Part shown: piece after piece, positions 37,686 through 55,882 of the stretch | How positions within the stretch are numbered: position 1 is the stretch's first letter | How the letters are laid out: each line of letters begins with the position of its first letter | Made by a program: the position numbers and the translations under genes | The notes under the pieces: model-generated | Told to the model about the DNA's origin: nothing | What the model saw: only the letters and a program-made list of their open reading frames with translations | Database searches by the model: none | Assembly: GCA_019057385.1 (NCBI GenBank) | Contig: JAHQJS010000005.1 | Coordinates: forward strand, 192,799-256,798 | DNA from: Candidatus Borrarchaeum weybense | GTDB taxonomy: Archaea > Asgardarchaeota > Sifarchaeia > Borrarchaeales > Borrarchaeaceae | Direction of reading: 5' to 3' | Length of the DNA: 64,000 nucleotides

Positions 37686-37744
37686 TTCTATTCTCTGCTT
37701 CCAGTATCTCTTTTTTGTCAATATTCAAATTCTTTTACTATGAC

Positions 37745-37785
37745 TAAGCCAGAAAGCAACACAGCTTCAGCGTGAGGTAGTTCAC
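37745..37785 (+). mobile_element. IS200/IS605-type right-end remnant (copy B)
   Basis: taagccagaaagcaacacagcttcagcgtgaggtagttcac, ending in TCAC. Confidence 0.7.
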
Positions 37786-37839
37786 TATCAACAAAAAAAG
37801 GAATATAAAAAATAGCATAGCCTGACGAGAAAATCTTCG

Positions 37840-38022
37840 TTATTTGTCTATATAAAGCTGGCCTGCAATCGAATAATTTTCTTTAGGCATATCATTGATT
37901 ATAATACGTACAGCGTCTTTTGGACAATCAAGTGCGTCTACAACCGCTTGTGTGACCATTTCAACTAATTTGCGTTTTTTTTCCAATGGGCGCTCGAAGA
38001 GGGTAATTTGTAAAATCGGCAT
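37840..38022 (-). CDS. 4-oxalocrotonate tautomerase family protein (second paralog)
   Basis: MPILQI...KKRKLV...NYSIAG. Confidence 0.92.
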   Translation of the reverse strand: MPILQITLFERPLEKKRKLVEMVTQAVVDALDCPKDAVRIIINDMPKENYSIAGQLYIDK

Positions 38023-38071
38023 GTCTAATCACCTTTTTAGAATTTATTTTTCTCTATTATGATATTCTTTT

Positions 38072-38517
38072 AAACTCTATCGGCGAGAAGTCCCCTTCCG
38101 AAAGGAGGGGGATGAAAGCCGATGGCTTTTTATAGTTTCGTGGAAACCTATACGTGGTACCGCGAGTGTACCCGTAATGCCCGACTGGGTGGAGGTATAT
38201 CCTCCTGTAAGCGACCAGTCAGCAGGTGACAGGGCTAAACATGAGGAAGCCCGTGCATGAGGTCTTATCCAGCGTGGCAAGAGAGTCCCCTTCTGGTGTG
38301 CAGTTTGCTAACCTGCCAGCCAGGCAGGTAACAGATTAATAGCCTTCTGCAAGCAAATAATCAAGGGGCAGGATAAGGGTGAGCAGCGTGTGCAACCTGG
38401 TAAGCTTCCGTAAGCCCATAACTGTAGTGAAGGTGGCGAAGCGTCGCCCCCCGTGAGGGAGCGAGAACTACAATGGAAAGCTGGAAGCCCCATCCAAAAG
38501 GGTGGGGAGGATGTCAC
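38072..38517 (+). mobile_element. non-autonomous IS200/IS605-type element with structured non-coding interior
   Basis: Left hairpin cggcgagaagtccccttccgaaaggagggggatgaaagccg after TTTA. Right hairpin gaagccccatccaaaagggtggggaggatgtcac. No tnpA/tnpB ORF. Confidence 0.78.
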
Positions 38518-38570
38518 ACATCTTGCCAATTTAGACAATAAAATGGTATTTTTTGAACTGAAAGAATAGG

Positions 38571-55775: not shown

Positions 55776-55882
55776 TGGCGGGTCCGGCGAGATTTGAACT
55801 CGCGATCGCCCAGCAACATCGATATGATGGTTGCAATCAGGCTTAGGAGGCCTGTGCCCTATCCTGGCTAGGCCACGGACCC
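55776..55882 (-). tRNA. tRNA-Arg(CCU) with 1 variable-loop intron (about 55807-55835)
   Basis: GGGTCCGTGGCCTAGCCAGGATAGGGCACAGGCCTCCTAAGCCTG...GCGAGTTCAAATCTCGCCGGACCCGCCA. Confidence 0.92.

Follow-up and report, generated by a model that had tools for sequence, protein, structure and literature searches.

The window analysed here, a 64,000-nucleotide stretch of the Candidatus Borrarchaeum weybense genome, carries at positions 38074-38517 (plus strand) a protein-less IS200/IS605-type element of 444 nt, the interior of which appears, judging from its sequence and that of its homologues, to be a conserved structured RNA. With a probability of roughly 0.6, we read this RNA as a stand-alone, self-transcribed TnpB-type omegaRNA, mobilised by TnpA and serving TnpB in trans. 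Protein-less elements with stand-alone omegaRNAs have already been described (10.1101/2023.03.14.532601; PMC10691335), so the novelty implied by the original prediction for this locus was too high; stand-alone guide-RNA transposons are known, and the element represents an unusually large new family, with no new principle or mechanism.

Boundaries and genomic setting of the element

Alignment of the genomic copies together with their flanks showed that the ends of the element are sharp. The original prediction had placed it at 38072-38517, after TTTA; the right end stands, and the left end is refined to 38074, directly after TTTAA at 38069-38073. TTTAA lies immediately 5' of each of six copies, every copy ends GGATGTCAC, and the aligned copies and flanks revealed neither inverted terminal repeats nor a flank duplication. 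The element has a GC content of 53% compared with 31-38% in the flanking DNA, and the description of the locus as a GC-rich, ORF-less island with IS605-type ends was borne out, as the open reading frames overlapping it are limited to mechanical minus-strand ones (67 and 76 aa). These were rejected as coding sequences, being broken by indels between copies. The neighbours of the element are divergent: on the minus strand a gene (37840-38022) for a 4-oxalocrotonate-tautomerase-like protein, and on the plus strand, from 38571, one for a class-V aminotransferase. The features of the two ends are the following:

38069-38073, plus strand: TTTAA target and transposon-adjacent motif (TAM), just outside the left end; it precedes six copies, the left ends of tnpB elements and homologues in another genus
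38079-38123, plus strand: left-end subterminal hairpin, likely TnpA site in single-stranded DNA; its sequence resembles that of the right-end hairpin
38129-38134, plus strand: TTTATA in the left end, a motif like the archaeal TATA box and the predicted promoter for the RNA
38488-38507, plus strand: right-end subterminal hairpin, second likely TnpA site and final stem of the RNA; it resembles the hairpin that ends tnpB ORFs
38512-38517, plus strand: right-end cleavage motif (ends TCAC), which is also the 3' strand of a pseudoknot (copy alignment and covariation)

The source genome (4.18 Mb, eight contigs) contains six near-full copies, 88-92% identical, and one shorter variant; truncated and internally deleted copies occur as well. 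All seven copies lie in intergenic DNA and in mixed orientation, with no consistent bias relative to the neighbouring genes in this genome. Empty sites, a search for which the original prediction had named as a check, were found at the orthologous locus: the spacer between the tautomerase and aminotransferase genes is element-free in three of four same-genus genomes (G001, G003 and G004), and TTTAA there joins the downstream spacer directly. The empty spacers and the TTTAA-flank junction together indicate that insertion at this locus was recent and precise. By its ends, its copies and its conserved structure, the element is best classed as a non-autonomous, protein-less IS200/IS605 derivative of PATE-like type that mobilises a large structured ncRNA, as had been proposed.

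Several further observations concern the insertion site and its surroundings. The TTTAA target looks like an archaeal TATA box. The insertion lies within a promoter spacer of only ~100 nt common to the two divergent genes (window 38023-38570 with the element); the inserted copy cuts the aminotransferase gene off from its former upstream DNA, and the element's own promoter now stands before that gene. Nearby, window 37740-37786 (plus strand) holds the right end alone of an element from another TnpB family; this stub ends GGTAGTTCAC and lies just 3' of TTTTAC. Dozens of sites in the source and sister genomes, some of them directly behind tnpB, repeat approximately 36 nt of this stub with 86-97% identity.

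Resident elements with related ends

The first ~69 nt of the element, comprising the hairpin and TTTATA, recur at ~25 other sites in the genome, with the hairpin 77-87% identical. Among these sites are the left ends of the one tnpA-tnpB element of the genome (C7:194115), the TnpB of which measures 427 aa (C7:194597-195877), and of ~7 tnpB-only elements, with TnpB proteins of 418-444 aa. The single Y1_Tnp gene of the genome (C7:194221-194586, 131 bits) lies directly behind the same left-end hairpin, and a Y1 TnpA with matching ends could act in trans on the element. The left ends of the tnpA/tnpB elements follow TTTAA and comprise the same hairpin and a TATA box ahead of tnpA or tnpB, while a related right-end hairpin, ending GTTCAC, is located at the extreme end of the tnpB ORF. 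The resident IS605 family (e.g., C7:194103-195880) thus has TTTAA, the left hairpin and the TATA box in common with the element, as well as a similar right hairpin and a CAC end, but it encodes TnpB and carries an omega region of ~135 nt inside the 3' end of the ORF.

In total, the genome contains one Y1 tnpA gene, 41 TnpB-domain matches and 16 IscB/IsrB-like (RRXRR) genes. The HEARO model gave 36 strong matches, of which 28 were above the Rfam cut-off of 83 bits, and many of these HEARO RNAs have no adjoining nuclease gene.

Three sets of resident sequences deserve mention in their own right. Copies of the TnpB subfamily considered below as the partner carry, in otherwise full-length genes, one in-frame TAG each (C4:626112-627383, C4:1153158-1154426 and C8:169367-170638; also in G004, G002 and G001), which may be a nonsense mutation common to them, a case of recoding or a split that has been conserved. 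Another family without protein genes, ~300-360 nt long and with the same left hairpin and TATA box but a different interior, was found at C8:185652, C6:426335, C6:514073 and C4:784387. Finally, elements of ~52 nt in which the left and right hairpin matches overlap (C4:817183-817234, C6:90731-90782, C6:740451-740502 and C7:213987-214038) seem to be minimal forms derived from the same ends, with one hairpin each.

Predicted fold of the RNA

The plus strand of the element folds better than its dinucleotide shuffles (z = -4.5; minus strand, -3.6). We aligned 40 homologues and assessed seven helices, for which 94.6% of cells are paired compared with 36-52% when the partners are slid by one to three columns. 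Changes on both sides occur at 14 pairs compared with two to seven in the slid controls (40 sequences). None of 500 shuffles reached the observed structure score. Because the aligned sequences are kin, such counts should not be read as probabilities, and the case for structure rests more on the slid controls and on compensatory swaps that recur. The 3' domain alone gave 95% pairing compared with 42-52% in slid controls. Compensatory changes among homologues, which had been named as a check, were thus found, and the predicted RNA is organised as follows:

38157-38517, plus strand: predicted RNA scaffold, ~361 nt; the start is placed from the position of the TATA box and the end is the transposon boundary
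38179-38235, plus strand: 5' module; helix 38179-38182/38232-38235 around a hairpin (38183-38188/38215-38220), its inner stem (38191-38195/38201-38205) and the pseudoknot 5' strand
38226-38231, plus strand: pseudoknot 5' strand GTGACA, which pairs with 38512-38517, the last six bases of the element
38264-38377, plus strand: central domain; helix 38264-38270/38371-38377 around helix 38287-38292/38363-38368 and a 70-nt expansion hairpin (38293-38362)
38405-38487, plus strand: 3' domain; helix 38405-38410/38482-38487 closes it around helix 38423-38427/38468-38472 and a hairpin with a GNRA cap and a single bulge (38444-38464)

The helix of the 5' module is 96.8% paired, with alignment columns 9/81 reading GC in 30 sequences, CG in seven, and UA and UG in one each. 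In the outer helix of the central domain, U-A to C-G exchanges between genera occur at four pairs. In 12 sequences, C-G is replaced by G-C in the closing helix of the 3' domain, the GNRA-capped hairpin has compensatory changes at five pairs, and in the alignment of the 3' domain the right-end hairpin carries a compensatory A-U to U-A change. The stems listed in the original prediction are all present in the sequence, but comparison among homologues did not support each of them. The gggct/agccc hairpin (38232/38248) found no such support; GGGC at 38232-38235 covaries instead with GCCC at 38179-38182. The outer stem of the 3' domain (agctt/aagct) exists, but is better drawn as 38405-38410/38482-38487, where the C-G to G-C swap occurs in another genus, and the GGCGA/TCGCC hairpin in the same domain was dropped, as its formation would be at the expense of the long GNRA hairpin, which covariation supports. 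The internal TATA box at 38129-38134 and the pseudoknot 38226-38231/38512-38517 had been missed.

Length variation is restricted to helix tips, and the 70-nt expansion is replaced by a loop of 5-7 nt in short variants and other genera. Counted from the first base that is conserved up to the end, minimal homologues measure ~220 nt and the window copy ~337 nt, its greater length being due to the 70-nt expansion hairpin and longer stems; a further 5' hairpin of the window copy lies behind the predicted start. The argument from size made in the original prediction is therefore weaker than stated, since the minimal forms are within the range of the natural ISDra2 scaffold of 231 nt (PMC10097598). 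The TATA box is kept in all copies; in homologues from other genera, the spacing between it and the start of the conserved RNA sequence is constant at ~25-28 nt. Two conserved modules, the 5' hairpin and the central domain, which contains invariant single-stranded stretches, are extra parts that the resident tnpB omegaRNA does not have.

The terminal pseudoknot

The conserved structure extends to the final base of the element, 38517. The 5' strand of the pseudoknot is located ~290 nt upstream of the 3' strand, within the loop closed by the 38179/38232 helix. In the 40-sequence alignment, 96.6% of the pseudoknot cells are paired, with pair 73/377 reading UA in 33 sequences, CG in four and UG in two; the four sequences carry a U-A to C-G double change, and others have G-U pairs. 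A 6-bp partner was not found in the copies of G018 or of the G016 type.

In the omegaRNA of ISDra2 TnpB, a pseudoknot formed by nucleotides -6 to -2 and -102 to -106 is reported to be conserved in all Cas12 guide RNAs (PMC10097598). Bases 38512-38517 occupy the position of nucleotides -6 to -2 in that structure (PMC10097598). The resident tnpB elements carry a matching pseudoknot pair, GTGGAC and GTTCAC, 135 nt apart with GGGCT after the 5' strand, so that the pseudoknot strand plus GGGCT is a motif common to the resident family and the element. A terminal pseudoknot as in TnpB/Cas12 guides, and the same arrangement in the resident tnpB elements, suggest that the RNA reads as an expanded relative of TnpB omegaRNAs. 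We infer that homology to TnpB omegaRNA extends beyond the pseudoknot and GGGCT motifs. However, blastn of element positions 70-410 against the full-length tnpA/tnpB elements gave no similarity; as there is no likeness of this kind to the resident omega region beyond the pseudoknot motif and the right end, compatibility with the TnpB of those elements is uncertain.

The pseudoknot-enclosed scaffold measures ~180 nt in minimal forms and ~290 nt (292) in the window copy, compared with 135 nt in the resident tnpB elements. Among the identities originally offered for the RNA, an extended or trans-acting omegaRNA fits best, with the 3' end at the boundary and the last six bases in a TnpB/Cas12-type pseudoknot; for the unknown ribozyme, also offered, we obtained no evidence.

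Distribution among Asgard genomes and co-occurrence with TnpB

A covariance model (R1) built from the 3' domain only detected homologues in 16 of 151 Asgard genomes, namely the complete set of four genomes from the same genus and representatives of five further genera in five further families. Identity is 75-92% within the genus; homologues from other families are ~72-79% identical or are detectable by the covariance model only. A pattern scan of the genome collection returned six real loci out of 117, the other 111 being chance matches to a pattern that was too loose; real matches in GenBank MAGs carry the labels Candidatus Borrarchaeum yapensis, Borrarchaeota and Candidatus Sifarchaeum marinoarchaea. 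A pattern scan of metagenomes yielded 26 further confirmed copies, the upstream sequence of which was inspected for 16. The examined copies have a uniform order of TTTAA, left hairpin, TATA box, RNA and right hairpin, and end in CAC or, in a few cases, CGC or CAT. Plasmid and phage collections searched with blastn gave no match to the element.

No tnpB gene adjoins the RNA in the source genome, in the 151 Asgard genomes or at the distant loci and metagenome contigs examined, and an effector-linked parent with the same scaffold was not found with the covariance model, the metagenome pattern or inspection of the genomic context. The TnpB-domain match nearest to any copy in the source genome is a 105-aa fragment ~6 kb away (C3), and the nearest gene of intact length is ~9 kb away (C7). 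Absence of tnpB in cis is the accepted state for omegaRNAs described as stand-alone (PMC10691335). TnpB of the partner subfamily (at least 49% identity) is present in 11 of 16 RNA-positive genomes compared with 15 of 135 RNA-negative ones, counts that include kin and are thus not independent; the co-occurrence of TnpB and RNA in support of a partnership is suggestive only. Five RNA-positive genomes have no close TnpB of the partner subfamily, including G016, a single contig rated 96% complete.

Searches for known RNAs and protein remnants

At gathering thresholds, Rfam models matched only a tRNA in the whole window. At E values up to 10, a search of 1.2 kb returned only a chance match to DUF2815 (E = 8.8, opposite strand); the RNA thus belongs to no matched Rfam family, in keeping with the original prediction. 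It had also held that the element is not a decayed tnpB, and tblastn with 19 TnpB, IscB and TnpA proteins of the genome aligned nothing but the C-terminal 8 aa of the partner TnpB, which fall on the right-end hairpin, so that a tnpB remnant was rejected. Motifs resembling RNase P, noticed by eye, were dismissed as well, because their order is wrong and they lie partly within the dispensable expansion hairpin. The tRNA (window 55779-55882, minus strand; 104 nt, 55.6 bits) is absent from the ARAGORN output, for which an archaeal intron is the probable reason.

Alternative explanations

The element might be a decaying, functionless relic, with an interior that is alike among copies since these are young or since folding of single-stranded DNA is needed for transposition. 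Shared descent does account for part of the conservation, as the copies within the genus are 75-92% identical, and truncated and internally deleted copies exist. In contrast, divergent homologues from other families keep the helices through compensatory changes, vary in length at helix tips only, and have G-U pairs in the pseudoknot and stems that point to pairing of RNA, not DNA. Moreover, TnpA proteins of the IS200/IS605 family require subterminal hairpins and nearby guide bases only, as is established for IS608, and we consider the relic unlikely. A second reading takes the RNA to be cargo, a TnpB-independent ribozyme, regulatory RNA or scaffold for another protein that uses the IS200/IS605 ends for mobility only. 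Its 3' end, however, is the exact transposon boundary and part of a TnpB/Cas12-type pseudoknot (PMC10097598). The element also has its TAM, its ends and the local motif of the pseudoknot in common with tnpB elements, and no Rfam ribozyme or other family was matched even at E values up to 10. What speaks for cargo is that the conserved 5' hairpin and central domain are unmatched in the resident tnpB omegaRNA, that the RNA is an orphan in every checked copy across several Asgard families, and that a close TnpB of the matching subfamily is missing from five RNA-positive genomes; on balance, we hold this reading to be doubtful. We give equally little credence to an emancipated, RNA-only lineage that propagates itself free of a cis effector across several Asgard families, its extra domains recruiting a different or additional partner or serving a function of their own, e.g., regulation at TATA-like TTTAA landing sites. 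The large extra domains and the absence of an effector-linked parent leave room for such a partner or function.

The guide of IscB lies 5' of the scaffold, outside the left end. A hybrid or IscB/IsrB-type (HEARO-like) omegaRNA is difficult to reconcile with the promoter within the left end and with a conserved boundary and pseudoknot at the 3' end. The HEARO model also missed all seven copies genome-wide (E up to 1) and matched nothing locally (E up to 10). The 16 IscB/IsrB-like genes and the 36 strong HEARO matches, many of them orphans, do indicate that RNAs of this type are mobilised in the genome too, but we regard the identification as very improbable. Least probable of all is a mini-IStron, i.e., a group I intron joined to an omegaRNA and self-splicing from host transcripts. 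Although the layout of left end, structured 5' RNA, omega-like 3' part and right end resembles that of tnpB-less constructs (10.1101/2023.11.20.567912), the group I intron model (Intron_gpI) was unmatched at E values up to 10, and the last base of the element is C where group I introns have a terminal G. Furthermore, a conserved promoter inside the left end places the 5' boundary outside the transcript, and all seven copies are intergenic and in mixed orientation.

A proposed stand-alone omegaRNA used in trans

For the preferred reading of a stand-alone omegaRNA, we propose the following cycle. The single Y1 TnpA would excise and insert the element as single-stranded DNA by means of the two subterminal hairpins and TTTAA, insertion taking place directly 3' of TTTAA with no target duplication. 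The TATA box in the left end would then drive transcription of the ~360-nt scaffold from a start near 38157, and the transcript would read through 38517 into the host flank, which would become the guide. Closed by the pseudoknot between its last six bases and the hexamer near its 5' end, the scaffold may be bound in trans by TnpB from the resident tnpB elements, which have the same TAM and similar ends. Guided by the flank, TnpB would cut the vacated TTTAA-plus-flank site, and repair would copy the element back, resulting in homing and retention. The start of transcription, the read-through into the guide, and the binding and cleavage by TnpB are steps that we infer. The guide so predicted is:

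38518-38533, plus strand: predicted guide, the first 16 nt of the host flank, from the family architecture and provided that the RNA reads through

No other genomic site combines TTTAA with the guide 38518-38533 at up to three mismatches, and genome-wide, TTTAA-plus-guide self-targets do not exceed the shuffled expectation apart from one flank duplication. A T6 run at ~38549-38554 could end transcription.

The duplication concerns copy C4a (C4:545900-546620), whose 3' flank imperfectly repeats the ~52 nt preceding its TTTAA. As a result, an additional TTTAA site exists upstream, within the final codons of the adjacent gene, and 13 of the first 14 positions of the predicted guide are matched there. 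Rather than an independent target, this looks like duplicated flank, left as a scar of repair or serving to rescue the 3' end of the gene.

Comparison with known systems

The closest parallels are PATEs, which often encode omegaRNAs and are known from Geobacillus stearothermophilus (Meers et al. 2023, 10.1101/2023.03.14.532601), and other stand-alone omegaRNAs, for which PMC10691335, citing Altae-Tran 2021, states that they function in trans with compatible effectors. Like the element, these are protein-less and multicopy, share their ends with effector-bearing elements of the same genome, need TnpA and a nuclease in trans, as the element would, and have an RNA that abuts the transposon boundary. 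The element differs from known PATEs in its Asgard host, its ~360-nt RNA with a pseudoknot-enclosed scaffold of ~290 nt, the archaeal TATA box of its own in the left end, and the fact that an effector-linked parent was not found in the genomes and metagenome contigs examined.

The omegaRNA or reRNA of ISDra2 (Karvelis 2021, PMC8612924; PMC10097598) has its scaffold end at the right-end boundary, up to which the conserved structure of the element extends as well. It likewise has a terminal stem formed by the right-end hairpin, a pseudoknot of the bases just 5' of the guide (in the element, the predicted guide) with a 5' segment, and a 5-nt TAM on the left flank. It consists, however, of a 116-nt core scaffold that overlaps the 3' end of tnpB and has the TAM TTGAT, whereas the element lacks tnpB, has the TAM TTTAA and accommodates extra 5' and central domains inside the pseudoknot. 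HEARO (Rfam RF02033; the omegaRNA of IscB/IsrB) is comparable as a large structured RNA on IS200/IS605 elements that is often an orphan in this genome, but it has its guide at the 5' end and a different fold, and its model does not match the element.

Implications

The RNA described here forms an uncatalogued family of stand-alone guide-type RNAs, absent from Rfam, that is conserved and mobile in at least six Asgard genera. Asgard archaea are the closest known prokaryotic relatives of eukaryotes, and their genomes are crowded with TnpB and IscB elements. For annotation, the family accounts for one class of GC-rich 'orphan RNA' islands in AT-rich genomes, and tool builders gain a natural test case for asking which parts of a scaffold TnpB tolerates or needs. 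If the RNA is indeed of omega type, such a scaffold can reach ~1.3-2.2 times the size of the omega region of the resident tnpB elements (135 nt) while retaining the TnpB/Cas12 pseudoknot, and guide-type RNAs can persist for long without a nuclease gene in cis.
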